Source: Myxococcota bacterium (GTDB taxonomy: Bacteria; Myxococcota_A; Polyangia; HGW-17). From it: a stretch of DNA of 64,000 nt. The stretch lies in contig JAHJMN010000131.1 of NCBI GenBank assembly GCA_018821305.1, forward strand, positions 44,106 to 108,105, given 5' to 3'. Positions 9,045 to 61,990 of the stretch are shown here, piece by piece. The translations under genes were made by a program, and so were the position numbers. Each line of letters begins with the position of its first letter. The first letter of the stretch is position 1. Under the pieces are notes generated by a model. It was not told the DNA's origin and did not search any database. It was given only the letters and a program-made list of their open reading frames with translations.

Positions 9045-10466
9045 ATGAACAAAGCCCTGATTTTTCTTTTTGGAGCAACAGGAGATCTCGCTAGAAAAAA
9101 ATTGCTTTTAGCAATTGGGAATCTTTATGCTGAAGGTTACATTTCAAGTGATTCTCAATTAATTTGTATTTCAAGGCGTAATTTTACAACAAAAGAATTT
9201 ATTGATTTTGCAAATATAAATAATAATCCAATAGTTAGTATAGTCAAATATATAAAAATGGATTTTCAAAATCCTGATCCAATAGAACTAATTGATATAA
9301 AAAACAAATTCAGTAAAGAAAACGATAGTTTTGTACAATTAAGTTACCTTGCTGTTTCCCCTGATTATTTTCTTCAAATGGTGGATGTTTTAAAAAAACT
9401 CGACCACGAAGAACACAGGATCGTTTTTGAAAAACCCTTCGGAAAGGATTTATCTCATGCGAAAGAACTTAATGAAAAAGTTCAAGAAAATTTTCCAGAA
9501 GAAAAGATTTTTCGGATAGATCATTATTTAGGGAAAGAGCTTGTCCAGAATATTTTCAATGTGAGATTTGGCAACAGGCTTTTTGAAGCTATATGGTGCA
9601 GGCAATATATTGATTCTATACAAATTACAGTTGCCGAGTCCACCGGTGTTGAAAAACGGGGGTCCTACTATGAAACAGCGGGAGCAACAAAAGATATGTA
9701 TCAGAATCATCTACTGCAAATTCTGTCCCTTGTTTGTATGGAACCGCCCTTGGATATGAATCCCGAATCAATAAGGGATCGTAAAACTGAGTTACTTCGC
9801 CAAATAAGGAAAATTGATAATAAAGACGTGGTATTCAGTCAGTATGATGAAGGATTCATTGATCTTGAACCGGTAAATAGTTATTGTCAGGAAGACAATG
9901 TTTACGAAGGCTCAAAAACCGAAACATACACAGCCACAGCGGTTTTTGTTGATAATGAACGATGGATGGGAGTACCAATATTTTTGCGAACCGGAAAACG
10001 GTTGGCAACAAGAGTAGCGGAAATTAATATTATCCTTAAAAAGCCAGAATCGAAGGTTCTGCATTCTCTCCTGGGAGAAGGAAATGAAAATATAATTACG
10101 ATTCGAATTCAACCAAGTGAAGGAATTTCCGTCAGTTTTATGGTGAAAGAGCCAGGTCCGGAAATGAAACTTGAAAAAGGACATATAAGTTTCTGCTATC
10201 CATGCCTATTTGCATTTAATACCATGGAAGCCTATGAACTGGCTTTGCTGGAAGCCCTTAACGGAGATCATACACTTTTTACAAGGTGGGATTTCGTGGA
10301 GACTTCCTGGGAAATTACTCAACAAATACTTTCTTTTCTTCCTGAGCAGATCATGGAGTTTCCGGATTACAAGGCGGGAACAGATGGTCCTGCCCGAGCA
10401 GAAAAACTGATTAGCAGGTATGGACGGAAATGGCTTCCACTTTTACCAACAATAGTTGAATCTTAA
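9045..10466 (+). CDS. zwf: glucose-6-phosphate 1-dehydrogenase
   Basis: 'FGATGDLARKKL' NADP-binding motif and the 'RIDHYLGKE' active-site motif are present. Length is 473 aa. Confidence 0.92.
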   Translation: MNKALIFLFGATGDLARKKLLLAIGNLYAEGYISSDSQLICISRRNFTTKEFIDFANINNNPIVSIVKYIKMDFQNPDPIELIDIKNKFSKENDSFVQLSYLAVSPDYFLQMVDVLKKLDHEEHRIVFEKPFGKDLSHAKELNEKVQENFPEEKIFRIDHYLGKELVQNIFNVRFGNRLFEAIWCRQYIDSIQITVAESTGVEKRGSYYETAGATKDMYQNHLLQILSLVCMEPPLDMNPESIRDRKTELLRQIRKIDNKDVVFSQYDEGFIDLEPVNSYCQEDNVYEGSKTETYTATAVFVDNERWMGVPIFLRTGKRLATRVAEINIILKKPESKVLHSLLGEGNENIITIRIQPSEGISVSFMVKEPGPEMKLEKGHISFCYPCLFAFNTMEAYELALLEALNGDHTLFTRWDFVETSWEITQQILSFLPEQIMEFPDYKAGTDGPARAEKLISRYGRKWLPLLPTIVES

Positions 10467-25786: not shown

Positions 25787-28312
25787 TCAAGGGACGAAAT
25801 TCATTGATGACGGTATGTTCCCGCCCCCGGGGAAAGAAATCCCAGCAATGCCATCAGAAATTGAGTTCGAAATGTAGTTAACCGTGATTTTTCCTGAAGA
25901 AAACAGAACAAGTTGGGCATGAAGAGTGTTTGAGACACTGTTATATTCACGACATCTCCAGGTAAAAGCCCAATAGTCTCCTTGGATTGCGTCAGTTCCT
26001 TCATGAATCAGAAATTCATCTCCGTAGGAAATTCTTGTGAGATCGTCCCACATTACTGCGATAACCGGATATGTGAACAGATTGATATCGCTTTCGAAGG
26101 GAATAGAATCTGGTATCTGAGTAAATGATAAAAACCCATTGGAACTGATGTATACTCTGTTGTAGTTGAAGCCGAAGTATGTAAAATCAAAGGGTAAACT
26201 CGAATCATAAATAAAATCGTCCGCAACAGCAAAAGAGTCTGTTGGAATACCAGTTGCAAAAAGTGTTGCATCCTGTGTCACGGATACATCATATGTAAAT
26301 AAGCCAAGGGGCTCGTACGTAATTTGCATTCCAGCAAGGTCTACAGGGCTTGAATCCTGAGTGAACTGCTCCCAATAACCATGTTTTTCAACGCATACTT
26401 CGTTCAGAATGCAGTCACTGTCGAGACAATCACTAAGTCCATCTCCGTCGTTATCCATAGAATCTGAGCAGTTTTGTTCCGTGGAACAAAACGGAAGAAT
26501 GCCAAAGCAGTCAGGATCATCACAGTCAGTTAATCCATCGAGATCATTATCCAGAGTATCGCCGCAGGAAGTTGTCTCCGATGACAGGATTTTCATTATT
26601 TTTAATTTAAATTGGTAAGGATTTTCAGCGATCCAGGCAGGATTTGTTTTTTCAGCAATTATGTAAACAGGAATTCCAGCGGAAAGAAAAGATACTGTCT
26701 CCACACTTTCGTTGTCCTGATTATATGAGAATACAGAAGTGGCATCTTCACAGTCATAGGCCAGATAAAGGTTGATGTGAAATGATAAATCATCTAGAAA
26801 TATCAAATATGTAGCATCTTCAGAAGGAGTGAAGGAGTAAAAGATGTCGATACTGGAGTCCGTATAAATTCCTGCCTGAAATGAATCTGTGTGTCCTTGA
26901 AAAAAATCTTCAATAATACCTTCAGATGCCTCAATTGCCTCGTTGCAGTTGTCTCCTCCGGTAATTGAGTGACAACGATACATTGTGGAAGAAGAATTAT
27001 CATTGATACAAACAGTAGCGGCGGGACATATTTCACTTGTTGAATTTGCGCTGCACTCACTGTCAGGGGTCAGAAGATTTGCTTTATTGATCTGAATCTC
27101 CCAGGGCGACGTGTAGACATTAGACCAGCTTTCTACCGCAAGATAAATCCAACCAGTTGTAGATGGGTAAAATATTATCGTATCTGATGCAGAATCCAGA
27201 CAATTTCCTGAACATTCTTCAAGAACTGCCATTTGGAGAGGATGTTCGCCTTCAGATGAAATCACTAAAATGTCAAGAGGATTAGTCCAGATTGCAAACC
27301 AGCCCTGAGAACCGGAAGTAGAAGGGGGACAATTTGTTCCTGTCAGTGTTGAATCACCAGTAAAATCAATATTGAAATTGCTTCCACTCCAGGTTGATGG
27401 ATAGTTATTTATGTAGAGTGGATTTGAACAATCAGCGCCCGATCCTTGAGGAAAGCAGGAAAAGTCAGAAGGATTACAGATATTTGGGGTTCCACAATCG
27501 TGATAAGTGATCCACTTGAAGCATCCCGTTTCTACCTCGGAGCATATTTGTACCTTTTCATTCAAGCAGCGGAGATTTTCATCGTCAAGATTGCATTCGG
27601 TAACGCAGGGAGTTTCGCACATGGCATTATCTGCGACATTAATGCACTGAAAATCACCACAGCTTTCAAAAGTCCAACCAAAACAATCACTTGGTTCGTT
27701 ATGAATGCAAGTCTTTACAGAAAGATTATCATCGGAACATTCTGTTTGTCCCTCATTTTCACATGGGTATTGACAACCGGAAGCACAGACAGCGTTGCCA
27801 TAACCATCATCAATGCAGATAGAACTCAGGAAACTGCAGTTTTCATGGACAAGCCATTCATTGCAACCAGCGGTGGATGAGCAAACATATACTGTATTAT
27901 CAGTACAAATTTTTTCCCCTTCGATACACTCATCAGGACAAAGACCTTCGCATTGAGAAATATCAAATCGACAGGAAGGATGACATTTCAATGTACCTGA
28001 TTCGTAACCAAAATTTGTACAGTCATTGCCTGCAGGCAAAAATACATCGCATTCCTCGTTGTTTTCAATTATGCCGTTTCCACAATTAGTTGAATAAGGG
28101 GAACACTGAGAATAGTTTATTGTGCAATCATCGTTACAGACTAGAGTGCCTGAATCAAAACCCGCATCCTGACAGTCAGAATAACGGAAAATAGCACCGT
28201 CACATTGTTCCCCGGGGTCGAGAAAACCATTTCCACACAGCTCTTTGGTTCCGGATTTTCCCTCACAGGAGATTAAAGCAAGCGTTAAAATATAAATAAT
28301 AAATAACTTCAT
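25787..28312 (-). CDS. large secreted lipoprotein (841 aa) with N-terminal Myxococcus-type Cys-rich repeats and an EGF-like Cys-rich region
   Basis: Lipobox (LISC). Two 'CGNG..D.GE.CDG' repeats are followed by more than 60 further Cys. The C-terminal roughly 400 aa are Cys-poor and beta-rich. Confidence 0.6.
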   Translation of the reverse strand: MKLFIIYILTLALISCEGKSGTKELCGNGFLDPGEQCDGAIFRYSDCQDAGFDSGTLVCNDDCTINYSQCSPYSTNCGNGIIENNEECDVFLPAGNDCTNFGYESGTLKCHPSCRFDISQCEGLCPDECIEGEKICTDNTVYVCSSTAGCNEWLVHENCSFLSSICIDDGYGNAVCASGCQYPCENEGQTECSDDNLSVKTCIHNEPSDCFGWTFESCGDFQCINVADNAMCETPCVTECNLDDENLRCLNEKVQICSEVETGCFKWITYHDCGTPNICNPSDFSCFPQGSGADCSNPLYINNYPSTWSGSNFNIDFTGDSTLTGTNCPPSTSGSQGWFAIWTNPLDILVISSEGEHPLQMAVLEECSGNCLDSASDTIIFYPSTTGWIYLAVESWSNVYTSPWEIQINKANLLTPDSECSANSTSEICPAATVCINDNSSSTMYRCHSITGGDNCNEAIEASEGIIEDFFQGHTDSFQAGIYTDSSIDIFYSFTPSEDATYLIFLDDLSFHINLYLAYDCEDATSVFSYNQDNESVETVSFLSAGIPVYIIAEKTNPAWIAENPYQFKLKIMKILSSETTSCGDTLDNDLDGLTDCDDPDCFGILPFCSTEQNCSDSMDNDGDGLSDCLDSDCILNEVCVEKHGYWEQFTQDSSPVDLAGMQITYEPLGLFTYDVSVTQDATLFATGIPTDSFAVADDFIYDSSLPFDFTYFGFNYNRVYISSNGFLSFTQIPDSIPFESDINLFTYPVIAVMWDDLTRISYGDEFLIHEGTDAIQGDYWAFTWRCREYNSVSNTLHAQLVLFSSGKITVNYISNSISDGIAGISFPGGGNIPSSMNFVP

Positions 28313-39863: not shown

Positions 39864-40778
39864 ATGAAAATCACTTTCCGTGGTGTAAGAGGCAGTATCC
39901 CGGTACCGGGAAGTCTCACCCGTTTGTGGGGTGGAAATACTTCCTGCATAAGTATTGAAGGCGCTGGAGAAGACCTCATTATTCTCGACGCCGGTACAGG
40001 GATCCGCACCATCGGCACTCGTCTCATGGATGAGAAAAAGTATAAAAATATACATATTTTCATTACTCATGCCCACTGGGATCATATTCAGGGCTTGCCG
40101 TTTTTTGAGCCTCTTTATTCAAGCAATTTTACAATTCATTTCTACTCCGCTATCCGTAAGGATTTCCACTGTCGAGACATCATCAGCAAAGTGATGAAAC
40201 CTCCGTATTTCCCGTATACAATTGATGACTGGAAAGCAGTTGTTCATTTTCACGACATCATACCGGGAACAGATGTTCAGATTCCCGGTTGCCGAATTTC
40301 ATCTGCAAAGCTTAATCATCCATGGGATGCCACAGCTTTTCGCATTACAGCGGCGGATAAGTCGTGCGTTTATGTTACGGACACAGCGCCTTTTGACCAT
40401 ATGATTCTATCCTGGGATTTCGTTGGTCGTGCCCCGGATCTGACATCAATGCCCCTCACTGATGAAGCTCCTGATCTTGCCCGTATGAAATCAGATCTCG
40501 TAAATCTCTGCCGAAATTCGGATATGGTCATTTATGACACAATGTTTTTAGACAGTGACTATAACAGAAATCCCCACTGGGGGCATTCCACCCCATCTCA
40601 TGCCATTGAAATATGCAAGGAAGCAAATGTAAACCAATTGGTGCTTTTTCACCATTCTCCTGACCGCAGTGATGAAGCTCTTGATATTATTAAAAAGGAT
40701 TTCGCTGCCTATCCGGATCTCAAAGTATTTGTGGCTCGGGAACTTCTGACCCTTGATCTGAATAAGGAGGGCAAATGA
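39864..40778 (+). CDS. MBL-fold metallo-hydrolase
   Basis: 'FITHAHWDHIQGLPFF' (HxHxDH) after an N-terminal 'ITFRGVRGSIPVPG...LDAGTG' beta-lactamase fold. Confidence 0.75.
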   Translation: MKITFRGVRGSIPVPGSLTRLWGGNTSCISIEGAGEDLIILDAGTGIRTIGTRLMDEKKYKNIHIFITHAHWDHIQGLPFFEPLYSSNFTIHFYSAIRKDFHCRDIISKVMKPPYFPYTIDDWKAVVHFHDIIPGTDVQIPGCRISSAKLNHPWDATAFRITAADKSCVYVTDTAPFDHMILSWDFVGRAPDLTSMPLTDEAPDLARMKSDLVNLCRNSDMVIYDTMFLDSDYNRNPHWGHSTPSHAIEICKEANVNQLVLFHHSPDRSDEALDIIKKDFAAYPDLKVFVARELLTLDLNKEGK

Positions 40779-41623
40779 AAGTTTCATTTCACGGAGTCCG
40801 CGGATTCCTGCCCGTTCCCGGGGATGACACCGTAATCTATGGCGGCAATACCCTGTGCATGAGTATCACCGCCGATTCCGGAGCATTAATCGCGATTGAC
40901 GCTGGTACAGGAATATCCGCCTGGAGTCGTACTTTACTCGGTGGCGATCTCGGTCGTGGTCGCGGCAATGTCGATATTATAATCACCCACAGTCATTACG
41001 ATCATACCCAGGGTTTTCTGTTTTTCATTCCCGCCCTTATTCCGGGAAATTCCCTGCGGATTTACGGCCCCGTTTGCAGCGGAAAAGATATCCGTCAGAT
41101 GCTCGAAGATCAGGTTCATCCGCTGGTTTCTCCTATGCAGACGCTGTCTAATTTTGCTTCAACCATGGCTTTTCACACAATTGAAACCCGTGAAGAATTG
41201 AAGCTCCATGATATATCCTTCCGGTTCCTTCCTTTAAAGCACGAAACGGAAAACAGTCTCGCAGTGGTTTTCTCCGATGGCAAAACCCGTGCAGGGTGCA
41301 TTTCCGACGTATTTCACAATCCTCATTCAATTACTTCCGCTTCGGAATTCTTTGCGGGATGCGATCTTCTGGTACATGACGCAACGGATACCAGTGTGGA
41401 TTATATAAGTTCAAAAAGGGATTTTTCCCGGGACGGTTTTACCGCCGTTGAAGTCGCCGGTCGTGCTCAGGTTACAAAACTTGTGCTTACCCACTTTCAT
41501 CATTCCCTCACGGACGCGGATCTCGAAGTTATGCTCCGCCGTTGCCGCTCATTCGCTCTTGACCGTGGTTTTAAAAACCTCGAAATAGACCTCGCAAGAG
41601 AAAACCACTCCATCTGTTTCTAG
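40775..41623 (+). CDS. MBL-fold metallo-hydrolase (tandem paralogue)
   Basis: 'IITHSHYDHTQGFLFF'. The N-terminus 'MKVSFHGVRGFLPVPG' parallels the upstream gene. It overlaps that gene's stop by 4 nt. Confidence 0.7.
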   Translation: MKVSFHGVRGFLPVPGDDTVIYGGNTLCMSITADSGALIAIDAGTGISAWSRTLLGGDLGRGRGNVDIIITHSHYDHTQGFLFFIPALIPGNSLRIYGPVCSGKDIRQMLEDQVHPLVSPMQTLSNFASTMAFHTIETREELKLHDISFRFLPLKHETENSLAVVFSDGKTRAGCISDVFHNPHSITSASEFFAGCDLLVHDATDTSVDYISSKRDFSRDGFTAVEVAGRAQVTKLVLTHFHHSLTDADLEVMLRRCRSFALDRGFKNLEIDLARENHSICF

Positions 41624-41731
41624 ATTTTTTTCTATAATCTAAATACACAGGAGGAACGGATCAAATGCTTGCTTGCTCGCTCAAGAAATGGCAGCATAAC
41701 TGTCAATTATAACAGGACCACCACAAAGCGT

Positions 41732-41992
41732 CTAACTGCCCATGCCGTCGTTATCTTTACCAAAGTTTTTCAGACCCTTGGTATTAACTTCTTTCGCTCC
41801 AGCCTTCATGGCATTTGGTGAAACGTTGGTTTCACCAGCGAGAGCATTCGCAGAAGCTCCGAAGAGCTTACGAATGTCGTCACCGAAGAGTGTAATTACA
41901 CCGATAGCAGCAATGGCGATAAGAGCTACGATGATAATGTACTCGGTCATTCCCTGACCTTTTTTGTTTTTCAAATTTTTTACCAGATTCAT
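41732..41992 (-). CDS. flp: Flp family type IVb pilin
   Basis: Leader 'MNLVKNLKNKKGQG' is followed by 'MTEYIIIVALIAIAAIGVITLF' (G/xxxxEY class-III signal plus hydrophobic helix). AAGGAG lies upstream of the ATG at 41992. Confidence 0.7.
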   Translation of the reverse strand: MNLVKNLKNKKGQGMTEYIIIVALIAIAAIGVITLFGDDIRKLFGASANALAGETNVSPNAMKAGAKEVNTKGLKNFGKDNDGMGS

Positions 41993-42239
41993 GACGATTC
42001 TCCTTTGTGCGGATTTGAGAGGAATAACCACTAATTAGTTTTATATCCGAACAGGAGTAGCTTTACTATCGGCCTGATGACCGATTAGACTGCTTGCAGA
42101 GTAAAACGATAGTAAAACTATTAATTACAAATAGATAGGGATTCTGGGAAACAGGGTCAGGCAAAATACTTCTAAATCCTTTAGTGACATAAATTGAAAA
42201 GGTGGCTATACTTTGTTTTCAGCGAAAGGGTGTTTATCC

Positions 42240-45200
42240 ATGAAAAAACAATTCGGATTCCAGATATTTGTGTCCCTGTTTTTATCTCTGCTTCTTTCCA
42301 GTGGGTGTGACGACAGCGGTGAAAAAAACGATGAATGTGCTTCCGGATGCCTGATTGAAGGTATTTGCTATCCTGACGGAGTTATAAACCCTTCTAATTC
42401 CTGCCAAATCTGCAATCCTGGTCTATCAGCGGATAACTGGTCTGATCATGAAGGTAGTTGCGACGATGGTTTGTTCTGTACGGTAAACGACATGTGCACT
42501 GCCGGAGTTTGTGAGGGCACCGAACGAATTTGTGATGACGGCATAGCCTGTAACGGCAGTGAAACCTGCGATGAAGAAAATCAGATCTGCACCGTTGGAA
42601 CACCTGAGTGTGACTCCGGGACTTTGTGTAATCTGGAGACAGATACCTGTGTTCAGACCTGCACCGGGTGTGCAATTTCCGGAATCTGCTACGGAAACGG
42701 TCAGATTAACCCCGCCAATCAGTGTCAGATCTGCGATCTGGTTACAAATGCTTCTGACTGGACCAGCCGCGACGGCGAAAGCTGCGACGACGGCCAGTTC
42801 TGCACGGTAAACGATGCATGCAGTGCCGGAGTTTGTGAGGGATCTGCCCGCAGTTGTGATGACGGTATAGCCTGTAACGGCAGTGAAACCTGTAATGAAG
42901 ATACGGACAGTTGCTCTAGTGGAACAGTCACCTGCACCGGCGGTGCCATGTGTGATATTGCTACGGATAGTTGTCTTTTTGCCTGTAATGGCTGCATTAT
43001 AAATGAAATTTGCTACGGTCACGGAAGCATTAACCTTTTAAATACATGCCAGATTTGTGATATGTCTCAGAATTCAGTTGGGTGGACAGATCGCGATGGG
43101 GCAAGCTGTGATGACGGTCTCTTCTGCACGATAAACGACACGTGCTCAAGTGGTGTATGTCAGGGATCTGCCCGTCCATGCGACGATGGTATTTCCTGTA
43201 ACGGAAGCGAAAGTTGCGATGAAACCAGCGATTCGTGCATTGCCGGAGTAACTACCTGCGAAAGTTCCGAGCTTTGTGAATTGACAACGGACAACTGCGT
43301 TCAGATGTGCACCGGGTGTGCAATTTCTGGAATCTGCTACGGAAGCGGTCAGACAAATCCCGCAAATCAGTGTCAGATTTGCGATCCCATTACAAATGAT
43401 TCCACCTGGACCAGCCGCGACGGCGAAAGCTGCGACGATGGCCTTTTCTGCACGGTAAATGATATGTGCGCCTCAGATATATGTGAAGGTACGCCCAGGG
43501 TATGCGATGACGGCATAGCCTGTAACGGCAGTGAAAGTTGTGATGAAGGCTCAGACACCTGCACGACAGGGGTAACAACCTGCGAAAGTTGGGAACTTTG
43601 CGATATGACTGCCGACAGTTGCGTTCAGACGTGCACCGGCTGTGCAATTTCCGGTATGTGCTTTGGAAGCGGCCAGATAAATCCGGCAAATCCCTGTCAG
43701 ATCTGCGATACTGTAGCGGACTCTTTTGCCTGGACCGATCGCATTGGAGAATCCTGTGATGATGGCGTAAACTGCACTGAATCGGATATGTGTGAAGGTG
43801 GCGGCATCTGCATGGGCACTGCTCTGGCTTGCCTGACGGATCGTCCCTGTATGGAAAACACCGGTTGCACTGAAGGATCCGGGTGCGGTGAGGTAATGAA
43901 TCCTGCCTGTGCCATGGATATCCATTGTGCCGATATCTGCACTGAAATCGGTGATACAGCCAAGTATTTTATTTATGAAATTTCTCCCGCAGAATTATCC
44001 ACTTCTGGTGGGGAGCTTGTAACGCTAAAAGGTTTCTTCGGTGATGGTTCAGAAGTGACCATTATCGCTGGGGGCATTTCCGTTCCTGTCCTGAGCGCCA
44101 ATTCAACTACGGTTACCTTCAGTGCTCCTGAGGCAAGCACAGATCTTGATCTCGTAATTACAGGCCCTGGTGGGGCACCGGTTGTGCGAGTTTTCAATGA
44201 ATATAATTACGGAGTTCCATATTATGTAACGTCTTCTTCCATGTCCCTTGTGTATCTTGCACCGGTGGTAACCACTGTTGAGGGGTGTAGTAATATTGGT
44301 TCAGAAGGAGTTACAGTAGATTGTGAAAAAGACGGGGGCATACCCATTCTGGTCACCGGTATGAATTTCGGAAATGATCCATCGAACCTTACAGTTCTTA
44401 TTGGGGATACCGAGTGTCAAGAGTTGGCGTTGGCAGATTATCATACTCGGATTTATTGTAACATTCCTCCTATGCCTGAAGGCGACTGGATTTTCAACGT
44501 AACGGTTATAAGGGATGGCAAGTCCGGAGTTAAGGAAGGTGGTCTGTCCTACGCAGGACCGTATATCGCTGAAGTTTTCTATAATGATGATGTTGACCCC
44601 GCTGGAGGAAGTATGCTGGAACTGCGAGCAGGCAACATAAGTTTACCTCCGGACACATCGGTATGGATCGGGCCAACAGGCACTGAAAATGAGTGTTTAA
44701 TTCTGGGGATCTTTTCCGATACAATACGATGCATAGTTCCTGCCGGGGCTGGAGTTGGTCATGAAATTAGAGTAAAAACTGGCAACCTCTGGTCCGAACC
44801 GGCACCGGTATTTTTAAATTACCGACTGCCGACAATTCAACCGGGCAGCCTGACTCCTGATCCCCTTATTCCCGGCGGTCTGATTCTTCCTTTACCGACA
44901 TATCCTGCTCAGGTTTACTTCCGGGTGGATGATCTTCCGACACTTTATGATACAGTAAATATTACTTATTATGATGGAATTAACTCCAATATCTGTCATT
45001 TCCCCGAGCTCACAGCAAACTCCTTATCCGAACCCATGGTTGGGTGCTGGATATTTGGCAATCTTTCTTCCGATGGTGCTGTCATGGGAGATTCTTATTT
45101 TTCAATCTCCGTTTGGGGTGCAACTGTTAATGGTACAGACATGCTCCAGTTTGGCATTCCGCCCCAGATGGCGACGTTTTCCGGTTGCGTTGATGACGGA

Positions 45201-45719
45201 AGCGGCAATACCGGGTCATGCCCCACGGAAGGTGGCAATACAATTACCGTAACGGGAAGCGACTTTTCCTCATCCATGCAGCTTGCGGTAAACGGAATTA
45301 CGACGGCTTACAATCTGATTTCTTCCAATGAAATCACCTTCACCATGCCCCAAGGCACTGGATATGCCAGTGTTCAAATCATCCTTCCATCGGGGCTGCT
45401 CTCCGCCGCCGCCGCGATTTCATACACCAGACCCGTAATTGATTCTGTACAAGGATGCCCTTTTACAGTTGGAAATACAACACACGGTTGTCCTGTGACT
45501 GGTGGAACAGTAATTACCATAAACGGAAGTGATTTCGGCTCATCCGGAGCAGAAGTGTTAATCGACAAAAATCAATGTACAGGTGTTTTGCATGACGCCC
45601 TGACGCCCCATCGCCGCATTACCTGCATACTGCCTCCGGGCACAGGACTGGAAGTTCCCGTAACCGTAAAAGCCGGAACCTTCACCAGCGATCCCGCCCG
45701 CCTCTCATACTTGCCGTAA
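42240..45719 (+). CDS. giant surface lipoprotein/adhesin with five tandem Cys-rich modules of about 107 aa and C-terminal IPT/TIG domains
   Basis: Lipobox (LLSSGC). Modules 'C.GC.I.GICYG.G.INP.N.CQICD...W..RDG.SCDDG.FCT.ND.C..G.C.G..R.CDDGI.CNGSE.C' recur about every 320 bp from roughly 42340 to 43900. IPT-like blocks 'IYEISPAELSTSGGELVTLKGFFG' and 'ITVTGSDFSSS' follow. Confidence 0.7.
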   Translation: MKKQFGFQIFVSLFLSLLLSSGCDDSGEKNDECASGCLIEGICYPDGVINPSNSCQICNPGLSADNWSDHEGSCDDGLFCTVNDMCTAGVCEGTERICDDGIACNGSETCDEENQICTVGTPECDSGTLCNLETDTCVQTCTGCAISGICYGNGQINPANQCQICDLVTNASDWTSRDGESCDDGQFCTVNDACSAGVCEGSARSCDDGIACNGSETCNEDTDSCSSGTVTCTGGAMCDIATDSCLFACNGCIINEICYGHGSINLLNTCQICDMSQNSVGWTDRDGASCDDGLFCTINDTCSSGVCQGSARPCDDGISCNGSESCDETSDSCIAGVTTCESSELCELTTDNCVQMCTGCAISGICYGSGQTNPANQCQICDPITNDSTWTSRDGESCDDGLFCTVNDMCASDICEGTPRVCDDGIACNGSESCDEGSDTCTTGVTTCESWELCDMTADSCVQTCTGCAISGMCFGSGQINPANPCQICDTVADSFAWTDRIGESCDDGVNCTESDMCEGGGICMGTALACLTDRPCMENTGCTEGSGCGEVMNPACAMDIHCADICTEIGDTAKYFIYEISPAELSTSGGELVTLKGFFGDGSEVTIIAGGISVPVLSANSTTVTFSAPEASTDLDLVITGPGGAPVVRVFNEYNYGVPYYVTSSSMSLVYLAPVVTTVEGCSNIGSEGVTVDCEKDGGIPILVTGMNFGNDPSNLTVLIGDTECQELALADYHTRIYCNIPPMPEGDWIFNVTVIRDGKSGVKEGGLSYAGPYIAEVFYNDDVDPAGGSMLELRAGNISLPPDTSVWIGPTGTENECLILGIFSDTIRCIVPAGAGVGHEIRVKTGNLWSEPAPVFLNYRLPTIQPGSLTPDPLIPGGLILPLPTYPAQVYFRVDDLPTLYDTVNITYYDGINSNICHFPELTANSLSEPMVGCWIFGNLSSDGAVMGDSYFSISVWGATVNGTDMLQFGIPPQMATFSGCVDDGSGNTGSCPTEGGNTITVTGSDFSSSMQLAVNGITTAYNLISSNEITFTMPQGTGYASVQIILPSGLLSAAAAISYTRPVIDSVQGCPFTVGNTTHGCPVTGGTVITINGSDFGSSGAEVLIDKNQCTGVLHDALTPHRRITCILPPGTGLEVPVTVKAGTFTSDPARLSYLP

Positions 45720-45766
45720 GGCACGGTGGAAGCAGGAAAGCAAGCTTGGGTAATTCCATCAACCTG

Positions 45767-45943
45767 AATGACCACACCCCTGAATCCGAATTCGATGTTG
45801 AATGAACGGATCATAAAAGCGTTCGTAGACCGCCTATAGTTAGCCCAGGGTTTTAACCCTGGGATCGGTGCCGGGGTAATCACATAGAAGTAAATGACCA
45901 CACCCGTGAATCCTCATGCGATGTTGAACCCGCAGACCATGAG
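45767..45943. repeat. two ~49-bp direct repeats (AATGACCACACCC.TGAATCC...CGATGTTGAA...) flanking a 77-bp segment containing hairpin CCCAGGGTTTTAACCCTGGG
   Basis: DR1 is at 45767-45815 and DR2 at 45893-45943. A third partial copy 'TCGATGTTGAATCCGCAGACC' lies at 46091-46113. The perfect 8-bp-stem hairpin is at 45844-45863. Confidence 0.8.
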
Positions 45944-45960
45944 CCTGTGCCCAAAGATTG

Positions 45961-46115
45961 CCTGTTCCTGATTACCTGATATTTAACAGGGACTCAGGTA
46001 GTCAGGCAAACAGGATCAGGAACAGGGCGTAAATATTCAATATCAATGGAATATTACAAAGACTGGAAGCAAATATTCACTTTTTAGTTTTCGATGTTGA
46101 ATCCGCAGACCAGCC
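45961..46115. repeat. dispersed CAGG-rich element copy
   Basis: 'CCTGTTCCTGATTACCTGATATTTAACAGGGACTCAGGTAGTCAGGCAAACAGGATCAGGAACAGGGCGTAAATATTCAATATCAATGGAATATTACAAA...GAAGCAAATATTCACTTTTTAGTTTTCGATG' aligns base-for-base with the 46625 copy. Confidence 0.8.
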
Positions 46116-46148
46116 TTTCCCCCTTTCCTGCGCCGCCGTAGTTGACGG

Positions 46149-46480
46149 GTCGGAACCAAAGGTGGAATGAAAAATCAACCGGGTCCGCGCGACATGGCGT
46201 GAGGTGGAATGAAAAATCAACCGGGCCCACGCGACATGGCGTGAGGTGGAATGAAAAATCAACCGGGTCCGCGCAACGCTGCTCGAGGCAAGACGAAAAA
46301 CAACCACTTCCACGCAACGCAGCGCGAAGCCGGACGAAAAATTACCAGGTCCGTGCAAGATGGCGCGAGGCCGGACGAAAAACAACCGCATCCACGCAAG
46401 ATGGCGCGAGGCCGGAAAAAAAATTACCCGGTCCGCGCAATACGGCGTGAGGTGAGATGAAAAATGAGCCGGTTCCGCGC
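46149..46480. repeat. GC-rich 41-42-bp tandem repeat array, about 8 units, consensus GGTGGAATGAAAAATCAACCGGGTCCGCGCGACATGGCGTGA
   Basis: Units 1-3 are near identical and later units diverge, conserving only the 'GAAAAA(T/C)' core and terminal 'GCG(T/C)GAG'. Head-to-tail without spacers. GC is far above the local background. Confidence 0.85.
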
Positions 46481-46542
46481 TATTATTAATATTTCTTTTT
46501 ATCAGATAAAATTTGAAAATAGGATGAACGATCCTTATACTC

Positions 46543-46564
46543 TGCAAGCGGTCTAGACCGCTTC
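46543..46564. repeat. near-perfect palindrome GCAAGCGGTCTAGACCGCTTCC (shared terminal module of the dispersed element)
   Basis: Preceded by 'CGATCCTTATACTCT', as in the copies at 46770 and 61775. It could form an 8-9-bp-stem hairpin and may act as a terminator. Confidence 0.7.
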
Positions 46565-46624
46565 CTGAGTAATACGATTGTGAGTTATTCTAAAGAAAAT
46601 CTTCAGGAGAAAGACCCTGAATGT

Positions 46625-46802
46625 CCTGTTTCTGCTACTGATTTCCTGTGTTCCTGAAATTTTAAACAGGGACTCAGGAAGTCAGGCAAACAGGGACAGG
46701 CGCAGGTCATAAACATGTAATATCAATTTAAAATTACAAAAACTTGAAGCAAATATTCACTTTTTAGATTTCGATCCTTTTACTCCGCAAGCGGTCTAGA
46801 GG
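46625..46802. repeat. dispersed CAGG-rich intergenic element, most complete copy (ends in GCAAGCGGTCTAGA palindrome half)
   Basis: 'CTGCTACTGATTTCCTGTGTTCCTGAAATTTTAAACAGGGACTCAGGAAGTCAGGCAAACAGGGA...ATATCAAT...AATTACAAA...GAAGCAAATATTCACTTTTTAGATTTCGATCCTTTTACTCCGCAAGCGGTCTAGA'. Confidence 0.8.
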
Positions 46803-47518
46803 GAGGGGGAATCCGGGGAATCGGGTTTTCTTTTTCGACTTATGCGGGATCGCTGATTTGCTAAAGCTGTGAAAAAGTCGGCAAAAACTGCTGCTGCTCT
46901 TTCTTCTCCCTTCAAAACAAGTACCGTCGACCACACGGCTTTTATTGCGTTATCCAAATCGGGAATTGTTGCTTTCATCGTAACTGGCTTTGCATCCATT
47001 GCGGCATTACGTTTTTCGAGATTTTCTAAGAAAACATCATTGGAGTTGCGGATAGCATCCACAAAAGGGCCAAAGTTTAAATTTGATATGCGGGGGGCAA
47101 CTTCCGGAGTTGAAAGAAATGCGAGACGTTCATTTAAAATACCAGTTTCACTTATGTAAGATTCCTTGAGGAATCCAAACCCATTGGGATTTATGCGTTC
47201 GAGGATAAAAATGGCATCTTCTCCTTTGTCGCTTCCCGGAAGCATAGCAAAGGATTCAAGATAGCTGCATGCAGCACGAAATGCGTCATCGCGAAGCTCT
47301 TCAAGTTGGGTAAGTTCTTCCGTAAGGGATTTTTCATGTCTTGGAACGAGGGTTGAAATGGTATTGTTTGCCCGTAGTAAAAGTTCGTCTGCTAAAGCTT
47401 TAATTGAAGGATCTTCGGGCCAGGTACTGAGACAGTTTTTTGCGGCATTTAAAGAAACTTGTGCTTTTTCAACGGAATTGAGTATAGAAACTGCTAATTT
47501 AAACATAGTTAAATCCAT
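46796..47518 (-). CDS. hypothetical protein, downstream of phoU
   Basis: 240-aa helical ORF whose stop codon lies inside a dispersed-repeat copy. Confidence 0.45.
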   Translation of the reverse strand: MDLTMFKLAVSILNSVEKAQVSLNAAKNCLSTWPEDPSIKALADELLLRANNTISTLVPRHEKSLTEELTQLEELRDDAFRAACSYLESFAMLPGSDKGEDAIFILERINPNGFGFLKESYISETGILNERLAFLSTPEVAPRISNLNFGPFVDAIRNSNDVFLENLEKRNAAMDAKPVTMKATIPDLDNAIKAVWSTVLVLKGEERAAAVFADFFTALANQRSRISRKRKPDSPDSPSL

Positions 47519-61740: not shown

Positions 61741-61990
61741 AAAACATTTAGTCTTTTCAAATTTCGATTACTCCGAAAGCGGTCTATACCGCTTGCAGAA
61801 TAAAATGATCGAAATAAGAAAATTGAATCAAAAATTACGTTCTTTTTAATTATTAATTGATATTGAATGGTTACGACCTGTTCCTGAACCTGTTTTCCTG
61901 ACTTCCTGATTCCCTGCTAAAAAATCAGGAAATCAGTAGCAGGAACAGGAAAACAGGGGGCCTGCTGCTGCCCCTGATTTCCTGAATGCC
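61741..61990. repeat. dispersed element copy: palindromic 3' module plus CAGG module in inverted orientation
   Basis: 61765-61800 'TTTCGATTACTCCGAAAGCGGTCTATACCGCTTGCAG'. 61868-61912 'CCTGTTCCTGAACCTGTTTTCCTGACTTCCTGATTCCCTGCTAAAAAATCAGG' is the reverse complement of the 37148 copy. Confidence 0.75.

Follow-up and report, generated by a model that had tools for sequence, protein, structure and literature searches.

The major pilin of the Tad-like Kil pilus of Myxococcus xanthus is KilP (mxan_5121), a protein that carries the G/XXXXE motif and is described as "conserved among the Myxococcales" (PMC12075869). The Kil pilus is extended on contact with prey and is needed for contact-dependent killing, a predation role that has been demonstrated in M. 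xanthus only (PMC12075869). The genes kilA/C/F/D are mxan_3105-3108 and kilH/G/B/K are mxan_4650-4655; kilP is unlinked to them, and the M. xanthus work left open the question of which peptidase matures KilP (PMC12075869).

We analysed a 64-kb stretch of DNA, hereafter the window, from a low-GC Myxococcota MAG. The original prediction had described a flp gene and a divergent lipoprotein gene, with two MBL-fold genes next to flp. This arrangement was borne out, both genes are real, and the MBL-fold genes occupy 39864-40778 and 40775-41623. Our main reading, to which we assign a probability of roughly three in four, is that flp and the lipoprotein gene are two unrelated genes placed back to back, the first encoding a KilP-type pilin with a distant machine and the second a stalked lipoprotein. 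The features considered are as follows.

41732 to 41992, minus strand: flp, assigned to the KilP family, an 86-aa prepilin plus stop (ORF and identical NCBI gene call)
41939 to 41959, minus strand: prepilin cleavage motif, codons G12-Q-G-M-T-E-Y18 (G/XXXXEY), from a motif scan
41993 to 42239, no strand: divergent spacer of 247 bp between flp and the lipoprotein gene, from the sequence
42086 to 42113, minus strand: copy of a genome-specific REP-like element (TACTCYGCAAGCRGTCTA) in the spacer, forming an inverted-repeat pair with 46528-46555
42184 to 42212, plus strand: sigma-70-like hexamer pair GTGACA-17-TATACT, a consensus match only, 28 nt upstream of the lipoprotein ATG
42240 to 42308, plus strand: predicted lipoprotein signal peptide MKKQFGFQIFVSLFLSLLLSSG followed by Cys23 (lipobox SSG-C), from the translation
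42336 to 43631, plus strand: four full 108-aa modules (aa 33-140, 141-248, 249-356 and 357-464), 16 Cys each, in 324-nt units
43632 to 43955, plus strand: fifth module (aa 465-572), first half conserved, second half with other Cys spacing, matching HMM profile positions 1-98 only
43956 to 45719, plus strand: C-terminal region of 587 aa with about six tandem Ig-like (IPT/TIG) domains, plus stop (Pfam TIG, AF2, Foldseek)

The mechanically called flp ORF begins at a GTG (41732-42031, minus strand), but translation really starts from the ATG at 41992, which follows a ribosome-binding site that we judge to be good (AGGAGA, 41998-42003, minus strand). We took a length of ~50-90 aa, a basic leader, the G/XXXXEY motif and an adjoining hydrophobic helix as the marks of a Flp/Fap pilin, and all are present: 86 aa, KKG/QGMTEYIIIVALIAIAAIGVITLF and a hydrophobic helix right after the motif. 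The product reads MNLVKNLKNKKG/QGMTEYIIIVALIAIAAIGVITLF around the predicted cleavage site, which fits G/XXXXEY and gives a predicted leader of 12 aa (MNLVKNLKNKKG) and a mature pilin of 74 aa with the N-terminus QGMTEY. In the motif scan, flp was the sole ORF in the window to combine G-x4-EY with a hydrophobic stretch. The protein scores 27.7 bits against the Pfam profile PF04964 (Flp_Fap), under the curated cut-off of 32.2, with profile positions 2-46 of 46 covered. Because this score is sub-threshold, family membership rests on the homologues, which number 2956; the best 120 of the 2956 are 60-100% identical to the query over 83-100% of its length, and 104 among these 120 bear the PF04964 tag.

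Published kilP primers encode MKAISKKQ... and ...FGQNNAY*. They exactly bound the flp ORF of Myxococcus sp. Y35 (L025, 9983-10237), matching its ends with 0 mismatches. The window Flp is colinear with the product of this primer-bounded gene, at 62% identity over residues 5-81. Judged by these comparisons, the window flp is a member of the KilP family. The name need not carry the function into an uncultured low-GC lineage, and the pilus that it builds might instead be a generic adhesive one of Tad type, serving attachment or biofilm formation. In Burkholderiales, Steroidobacteraceae, Shewanella and further bacteria not known to be predatory, an Flp with this same N-terminus (GQGMTEYIIIVALIA) is encoded at the head of complete tad operons, which together with the restriction of the predation evidence to one species speaks for the generic pilus. 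Proteobacterial Flps nevertheless diverge beyond the alpha1N helix, whereas within the Myxococcota conservation with the experimentally characterised KilP extends over the entire 86-aa protein, including its C-terminal half. We regard a generic pilus as unlikely, at odds of about one against three, and by analogy with M. xanthus the KilP-type pilin may serve predation in its own organism.

The absence of tad/cpa assembly genes around flp, as originally described, holds for the whole window: Pfam found none among the ORFs of 120 aa or more that do not overlap a longer ORF, and tblastn of the window with secretin, T2SSE ATPase, T2SSF, TadG, TadE and A24 peptidase seeds gave no match. The gene is a credible prepilin gene without assembly genes nearby. 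To place this in context, a tblastn survey with six tad seed proteins covered 80 genome loci with flanks that reached 10 kb at most and were shorter on small contigs. Some 30 flp loci of Myxococcaceae, Archangium, Corallococcus and Pyxidicoccus gave 0 matches to the six seeds within flanks of up to 10 kb. Other Myxococcota have flp with A24, or flp-A24-secretin and then the ATPase where the contig is long enough, and full tad operons with flp occur in Burkholderiales and others. Since the surveyed Myxococcaceae, Archangium, Corallococcus and Pyxidicoccus loci lack seed matches and kilP of M. xanthus is itself unlinked, an unlinked flp is normal for the KilP family, and across much of the Myxococcota the major pilin is usually encoded apart from its machine genes. 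The "orphan" status that had been taken for an anomaly thus disappears. A lone flp in a myxobacterial genome is better read as a KilP-type major pilin with its machine elsewhere than as a stray gene or a novel system. The survey also outlines a graded dispersal of the kilP-kilA-kilC-kilF order across the Myxococcota, and some lineages keep kilP linked to a small A24 peptidase gene, which bears on the identity of the KilP-maturing peptidase. In the window's organism, by orthology, an A24 prepilin peptidase would cut the 12-residue leader after Gly12, and the mature 74-residue pilin, with its QGMTEY N-terminus and hydrophobic alpha1N helix, would be polymerised by a distant Kil/Tad-like secretin-ATPase-platform machine. 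A search with a neighbouring lineage's A24 peptidase returned 0 proteins from the window's genome but is uninformative, because it also missed the known peptidase of the related MAG L091 (53% identical to the query).

The original prediction was to fall if a complete tad operon elsewhere, with its own flp, made this copy a paralogue. One half of this was found: the same genome encodes a second Flp (P0123, KKF34_08805) that is 90% identical to the window copy (P0121, KKF34_13310), and both occur in the same three assemblies. The window flp could accordingly be a secondary, redundant recent duplicate, with KKF34_08805 as the working pilin in an ancestral flp-A24 peptidase-BamA locus, a reading compatible with our main one. 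In two related MAGs (L005 and L091) flp lies in a mutually syntenic locus, in the order Aminotran_3, AMP-binding, hypothetical, flp, A24, BamA, EF-G. The window contains none of these neighbours, so its flp is not syntenic with the flp locus of the related MAGs. Its position outside that conserved locus agrees with a redundant copy, as do tandem kilP duplicates elsewhere (e.g. L060, L030, L045, L064 and L087). The window gene is nonetheless intact, has a good ribosome-binding site and encodes a protein identical in three assemblies, and the two copies are roughly equidistant from outgroup sequences. On balance redundancy is possible, with a little under one chance in three.

On the other side of the spacer, the mechanical ORF starts at a TTG (42213-45719, plus strand); from the real ATG at 42240 the gene spans 42240-45719 and encodes 1159 aa, identical to the NCBI protein "IPT/TIG domain-containing protein [Myxococcota bacterium]". 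Its N-terminus consists of MKK, a hydrophobic core and LLSSG-C23, with Ser at position -3 in place of the classical Leu/Val/Ile. A lipobox-like N-terminus is found in 49 of the 62 family members that have at least two full modules. The C-terminal region scores 123.1 bits against Pfam TIG (PF01833; cut-off 20.9) in 4 stretches, and its AF2 model is all-beta with a pLDDT of 86.6. In Foldseek this region best matches the ectodomains of plexin A1/A4 and plexin IPT3-6 (E = 4e-16 to 3e-12). The earlier description of the neighbour as a protein of Cys-rich modules and IPT domains is supported by the modules and the TIG matches, and the lipobox-like N-terminus makes it a probable lipid-anchored protein. 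The protein would be lipid-anchored at its N-terminus, with five disulfide-rich modules forming an extended stalk and about six IPT/Ig domains at the distal end; it is probably surface-exposed and may be adhesive.

The module array has a DNA period of 324 nt across 42336-43955. It had been described as five near-identical units of ~107 aa; the repeat array stands, but it comprises four full modules and one degenerate one, and they are not near-identical. Modules 1-4 share 42-68% of their amino acids with one another, and module 5 is ~30-37% identical to modules 2-4. Among modules 2-4 the DNA is 60-74% identical with a longest exact shared run of 33 nt, and the array escaped Tandem Repeats Finder. 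An alignment of 60 module sequences has 15 invariant columns, 13 of them Cys, and AF2 models module 2 as all-beta hairpins with a pLDDT of 93.7. At E ≤ 1e-3 the module profile matches 10,377 cluster representatives, of which 1,160 remain at E ≤ 1e-30. The superfamily appears to be a very common family of myxobacterial surface proteins, centred on the Myxococcota where the source names an organism, and its modules typically form a stalk beside an N-terminal lipid anchor, with varied C-terminal domains after it. Module 2 has no Pfam match at E ≤ 1, the whole lipoprotein has no NCBIfam repeat match at E ≤ 0.01, and the module has no counterpart among PDB sequences at E ≤ 1 and nothing below E = 1.3 in a Foldseek search of the PDB. 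Dicty_CTDC (PF00526), myxo_disulf_rpt (TIGR02232) and DUF4215 (PF13948) were considered as identities for the module and rejected, none of these models matching at those thresholds; some module homologues do carry PF00526 or PF11617 matches. The result is an abundant 108-aa disulfide-rich stalk module with a confidently predicted fold that has no counterpart in Pfam, NCBIfam or the PDB.

The repeat had been expected to permit recombinational size variation of a surface protein. Counting modules in relatives showed that their number is not fixed: five related proteins with a colinear 585-aa C-terminal region have 2.6, 3.8, 4, 5 and 5.4 modules, a comparison among proteins that share this region and are only 35-49% identical. 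The modules themselves, at the nucleotide identity and longest exact match given above, are too diverged to be a hot substrate for recombination. A contingency-type protein whose size varies through recombination was rejected on the same values and because the lipoprotein is identical in three independent MAG assemblies. Stalk length would evolve through the gain or loss of whole modules rather than be switched rapidly.

The original prediction also took flp and the lipoprotein gene for a co-regulated pair. The pairing is not conserved: flp accompanies 0 of the 3 related lipoprotein loci, whose lipoproteins are only 35-49% identical to that of the window, and the lipoprotein accompanies 0 of 83 flp loci. 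On these counts the pairing is most likely incidental.

Genes that diverge from a 247-bp spacer can be regulated together even where synteny is not conserved. The REP-like element recurs at 46529, 46772 and 61783 as well as outside the window, and none of its copies occurs in the flp loci of relatives. The window holds GTCAGGCAAA at exactly three places, one in the spacer and two in the repeat zone immediately downstream of the lipoprotein gene. Sigma-70-like sites number 2 against 1.6 expected, which is not significant alone. CAGG is indeed present, as the argument for co-regulation from the spacer had it, but this CAGG content is in part a dispersed genome-specific repeat, portions of which recur downstream of the lipoprotein gene.

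A co-regulated surface module, in which pilus and adhesin are driven from the shared spacer, would draw on the divergent orientation, the 247-bp spacer and the placement of GTCAGGCAAA on both sides of the lipoprotein gene. It is improbable given that neither set of loci repeats the pairing, that related MAGs hold flp in a different conserved locus, and that the spacer motifs belong to a dispersed repeat absent from relatives' flp loci. The inverted repeats suggest a further possibility, phase variation by inversion or movement of the lipoprotein gene as a cassette, for a 28-nt inverted repeat that is 86% complementary (42086-42113 and 46528-46555) brackets the gene. The arms are, however, short and imperfect and belong to the dispersed REP-like element, no recombinase gene is adjacent, and the NCBI contig has the same orientation; we consider a cassette very improbable indeed. 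Also highly speculative is a composite proposal in which a duplicated kilP was captured beside the IPT lipoprotein and is co-regulated with it through the CAGG/REP spacer as a lineage-specific pilus-plus-receptor for contact with prey or substrate, and in which, separately, the 16-Cys module is an uncurated domain family without a solved structure that serves as the universal anchor-proximal stalk in the Myxococcota.

Several known systems resemble one or the other of the two genes. Plexin and MET ectodomains contain IPT arrays with the tandem Ig-like fold seen in the C-terminal 587 aa of the lipoprotein; identity to plexin is only 12-17%, global TM is low (the chains are flexible) and there are no sema or PSI domains, so that the resemblance is one of fold, not orthology. 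In the modules, sub-motifs of the form CDDGxxC(T/N)xxDxC recall the Dicty_CTDC, myxo_disulf_rpt and DUF4215 repeats. TraA of M. xanthus (PMC13184517) is similar in architecture, being a myxobacterial surface protein that combines cysteine-rich tandem repeats with a signal for membrane sorting and a distinct recognition domain, but it has a C-terminal MYXO-CTERM tag and a variable recognition domain where the window lipoprotein has a lipobox-like N-terminus and an IPT/Ig head.

The classical Flp/Tad major pilins, Aggregatibacter Flp1 and Caulobacter PilA, have in common with the window Flp the prepilin class (PF04964), the cleavage motif and the hydrophobic helix. Unlike them, the window Flp scores under the Pfam gathering threshold, and whereas their genes head tad/cpa operons, directly upstream of cpaA/tadV, rcpA and tadZABC, the window flp has no such genes within 64 kb. 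Compared with M. xanthus KilP, the window Flp comes from an uncultured low-GC Myxococcota MAG and has two copies in its genome. Both are short Flp prepilins with G/XXXXEY and the C-terminal LFGxSAxALAG...K.LK.FG region, and both are encoded apart from the secretin, ATPase and platform genes.

The window derives from an uncultured Myxococcota bacterium, and the same genes are found on NCBI contig JAHJNQ010000241.1 (GCA_018820545.1). The bacterium also occurs in SRR2544012. The genes surrounding the pilin gene are arranged as follows.

39864-41623, plus strand: two MBL-fold hydrolase genes in tandem with a 4-nt overlap, 5' of the lipoprotein gene
41732-41992, minus strand: flp, encoding an 86-aa Flp prepilin
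6-11 nt 5' of ATG 41992: AGGAGA, the flp ribosome-binding site
42086-42113, minus strand: copy of a REP-like element in the flp-lipoprotein spacer
42240-45719, plus strand: lipoprotein gene, product of 1159 aa

The minus-strand frame 41732-42031 is a mechanical ORF that opens at GTG; the public gene call begins at ATG 41992. The lipoprotein gene starts at ATG 42240, not at TTG 42213, and its product is 100% identical to the NCBI entry 'IPT/TIG domain-containing protein [Myxococcota bacterium]'. Both MBL-fold genes show weak similarity to RNase Z and cyclic-nucleotide phosphodiesterases, and precomputed annotation flags a weak match of the second to the Anti-Pycsar protein Apyc1. The pair is not kept beside flp in relatives.

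The window Flp (P0121, KKF34_13310), which reads MNLVKNLKNKKG/QGMTEYIIIVALIAIAAIGVITLFGDD... across the cleavage point, scores 27.7 bits against Pfam Flp_Fap, under the gathering threshold of 32.2. A protein search returned 2956 homologues; the best 120 of these are 60-100% identical across 83-100% of the query, and those with named sources are mostly Myxococcota (Myxococcaceae, Archangium, Pyxidicoccus and Polyangia). The C-terminal half is also conserved, with the pattern LFGxSAxALAG...K.LK.FG. A 2025 paper (PMC12075869) reported that KilP (mxan_5121) is the major pilin that had long been missing for the Kil Tad-like pilus of M. xanthus; it is 'conserved among the Myxococcales', carries a G/XXXXE motif and is essential for contact-dependent prey killing. 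In the primer table of that paper the kilP forward primer is ATGAAGGCGATCTCGAAGAAGCAGC, which translates as MKAISKKQ; read in reverse complement, the reverse primer TCAGTACGCGTTGTTCTGGCCGAAC gives FGQNNAY and a stop codon. Both primers fit the ends of the Myxococcus sp. Y35 flp ORF (9983-10237 of its fetched locus, L025) with zero mismatches, and the window Flp aligns colinearly with that ORF at 62% identity; on the strength of these two observations the window gene is assigned to the KilP family. The present assembly is not among the supplementary genome tables of PMC12075869.

The original prediction regarded flp as an orphan, with no tad/cpa genes nearby. That absence was borne out, and extends to the full 64 kb: no component was found when Pfam was applied to every window ORF of at least 120 aa (minus those overlapping a longer ORF), or by tblastn with six seeds from Pfam-labelled loci (secretin, FHA-T2SSE ATPase, T2SSF, TadG, TadE and A24 peptidase). 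Nor were there tad genes beyond the right end (~3 kb of new sequence) or the left end (<1 kb), and a pattern search detected no sigma-54 promoter near flp. A search with the A24 peptidase of the related locus L005 gave 16 matches, none from this genome, but it also missed the known peptidase of locus L091, so this negative carries little weight.

The lack of linked tad genes is nonetheless no anomaly, since kilP is unlinked in M. xanthus, where kilA, C, F and D are mxan_3105-3108, kilH, G, B and K are mxan_4650-4655 and kilP is mxan_5121 (PMC12075869), and, within flanks of at most 10 kb, in about 30 related loci. We fetched 80 genome loci carrying relatives of the window Flp and searched all of them with the six seeds. 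The ~30 loci from Myxococcaceae, Archangium, Corallococcus and Pyxidicoccus gave no seed match in flanks of at most 10 kb per side (shorter where the contig was short), and the same was true of L007 from Pyxidicoccus. Other loci have machine genes close to flp.

Machine genes linked to flp/kilP in the fetched loci (L numbers)
L005:10001-10808 and L091:5221-6070: kilP, then a small A24 prepilin peptidase
L005, L009, L012, L013, L019, L024, L057, L068, L091: small A24 peptidase (~185 aa) directly 3' of flp/kilP
L008, L014: A24 gene, then secretin, then contig end
L020, L084: A24, then secretin and FHA-ATPase, the order kilP-kilA-kilC-kilF
L030, L036, L041-L045, L053-L055, L058, L059: complete tad-like operons
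L062, L065, L077-L079, L081, L083, L085-L087: complete tad-like operons, further loci

The flp-A24 loci belong to Myxococcota outside the Myxococcaceae (Polyangia, Haliangium and unclassified MAGs). In Burkholderiales, Steroidobacteraceae, Shewanella and others, a Flp with the KilP-like N-terminus GQGMTEYIIIVALIA stands at the head of a complete operon, confirmed by Pfam in L042. The complete operons, which span Burkholderiales, Steroidobacteraceae, Chitinimonas, Idiomarina and Shewanella, run in the order OmpA-like, TadG, TadE, secretin, FHA-ATPase, T2SSF, and usually have a second Flp-like gene a few kb downstream, most often ending ...SLP. The differing extent to which A24, secretin and FHA-ATPase genes follow kilP suggests that an ancestral operon was dispersed stepwise, and the window resembles the Myxococcaceae in being fully dispersed. 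This picture of operon dispersal and the kilP-A24 linkage in some lineages are two of the three side points in which the remaining value lies, the third being the abundant stalk module of the lipoprotein; the adjacency bears on which peptidase matures KilP, a question left open in the M. xanthus paper (PMC12075869).

The window copy is also a paralogue, part of an outcome that the original prediction had named as counting against it. A second Flp, P0123 (KKF34_08805), is 90% identical to P0121, and each is found in the same three NCBI assemblies, GCA_018820545.1 and two sister assemblies with the entries MBU1381947 and MBU1497848. L005 (GCA_016937155.1) and L091 (GCA_018821745.1), whose Flp proteins are 73-81% identical to the window's over aligned residues, have a common gene order of Aminotran_3, AMP-binding, hypothetical, flp, A24 peptidase, BamA and EF-G. 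None of the Aminotran_3, AMP-binding, A24, BamA or EF-G genes is in the window, indicating that the window flp occupies a different site; P0123 may hold the ancestral locus. An outgroup comparison intended to tell the ancestral from the derived copy found P0121 and P0123 equidistant from the outgroups. Tandem duplicates of kilP-type flp occur in other genomes (L060:9971-10707; L030, L045, L064, L087); the family has thus seen its pilin gene duplicated more than once.

The divergent arrangement of flp and the lipoprotein gene across a shared CAGG-containing spacer had been taken to suggest that the two are co-regulated. We consider a functional pair very unlikely. The pairing is not conserved: no flp-like ORF was present in any frame at three related lipoprotein loci, and neither the modules nor the TIG region had a match at any of 83 flp loci (L005-L087). 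The nearest flp contexts share synteny with one another and are unlike the window. The REP-like element in the spacer, TACTCYGCAAGCRGTCTA, is genome-specific and dispersed in intergenic regions, often as part of the palindrome AAGCGGTCTAGACCGCTT; further copies lie at 46529-46557, 46772-46800, 61773-61798 and L088:13211. It also recurs beyond the window but is absent from the flp loci of relatives. The copies 3' of the lipoprotein gene have the opposite orientation to the one in the spacer. The window has exactly three copies of the decamer GTCAGGCAAA: one in the spacer, at 42156, and two in the repeat zone that follows the lipoprotein gene. These hint weakly that sequence elements are shared around that gene and are not evidence of co-regulation with flp. 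A sigma-70 scan of the spacer did not exceed shuffled expectation. The observations behind the original prediction were mostly right, apart from an overstated repeat identity; KilP biology and the absence of conserved synteny largely explain away its interpretation.

Between the lipoprotein stop and a convergent DUF6261 gene lies a 1.08-kb non-coding stretch packed with repeats (45720-46795).

45748 and 45874: two 55-nt repeats, with three 21-nt repeats in the same stretch
45979-46095 and 46659-46775: two 117-nt repeats, 85% identical
46128-46480: tandem array, eight copies of 41-42 nt, GGA motif in most units

Both 117-nt copies terminate in a sigma-70-like TGGAAG/TTGAAG-17-TAGTTT/TAGATT pair. 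Rfam had no match in the window, this stretch included, and the 41-nt array folded as RNA with weak z-scores of -2.3 (plus strand) and -1.0 (minus strand). Contig JAHJNQ010000241.1 breaks at ~46783. The GC content of the window, low by the standards of Myxococcota to an unusual degree, is 33-42% over 1-38 kb and then steps up to 42-48% over 38-60 kb (2-kb windows). Two other large proteins are encoded.

25787-28312, minus strand: 841-aa Cys-rich repeat protein, NCBIfam NF033662, 50.7 bits
53839-59976, minus strand: bacterial alpha-2-macroglobulin, 2045 aa, with bMG10, A2M, bait region, MG2 and TED domains

The 841-aa protein, a second Cys-rich repeat protein different from the lipoprotein, matches the acidic double-disulfide repeat (NF033662) and, weakly, myxo_disulf_rpt; it has no Pfam match.

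The lipoprotein begins MKKQFGFQIFVSLFLSLLLSSG-C23, a plausible lipoprotein signal despite Ser at position -3. Said to hold five near-identical modules, it has four full 108-aa modules of 16 Cys apiece (residues 33-464), for which eight disulfides per module are predicted, and a fifth whose second half is diverged (465-572). Nor are the modules near-identical: amino acid identity is 59-68% among modules 2-4, 42-44% between module 1 and these, and about 30-37% between module 5 and these. DNA identity among modules 2-4 is 60-74% (62-87% over sub-segments in a repeat search), and the longest stretch that two modules share exactly is 33 nt. The copies have diverged so far that Tandem Repeats Finder, run on 40000-47000, missed the 324-nt array. 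For module 2, AlphaFold2 with a 60-sequence alignment gave a confident model (pLDDT 93.7) that contained only short beta-hairpins. Foldseek found nothing significant in the PDB, the best matches being the Cys-rich part of an Entamoeba Gal/GalNAc lectin (E = 1.3) and then EGF-like arrays; profile searches of PDB sequences and Pfam gave no match at E ≤ 1, and NCBIfam repeat models did not match. The C-terminal 587 aa were modelled as ~6 tandem Ig-like domains (pLDDT 86.6), with plexin ectodomain IPT arrays as the top Foldseek matches and Pfam TIG in four stretches.

Module number varies between related proteins. Five other proteins share a colinear 585-aa C-terminal region with the window lipoprotein. 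In four of them the modules number ~2.6 (P0031), 3.8 (P0002), 4 (P0010) and 5.4 (P0006), and P0063 is N-terminally truncated. Judged from these counts, module number changes over evolutionary time. Within the species the lipoprotein is identical in three assemblies. Within each of the homologue pairs P0007/P0022, P0005/P0030 and P0042/P0054 the longest-contig figure is the same, which suggests that Cys-module lipoprotein genes are often neighbouring paralogues.

Searched against 1.84 billion proteins, a module profile matched 10,377 cluster representatives at E ≤ 1e-3 and, at the stricter cut-off of E ≤ 1e-30, 1,160. At least two full modules are present in 62 of the 120 best whole-protein matches; these carry 2-8, the array usually starting ~60 residues from the N-terminus, and a lipobox-like signal precedes it in 49. 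The regions behind the arrays vary (TIG, Big_9, beta-helix, glycine-rich, proprotein-convertase P, fibrinogen C and other Pfam domains). Together, the signal, the near-N-terminal array and the varied C-terminal regions support the view that the array is an anchor-proximal stalk, built from a very abundant module that has neither a Pfam nor an NCBIfam model. Its nearest described parallel, by analogy, would be TraA of M. xanthus, with its variable domain, cysteine-rich repeats and MYXO-CTERM sorting tag.
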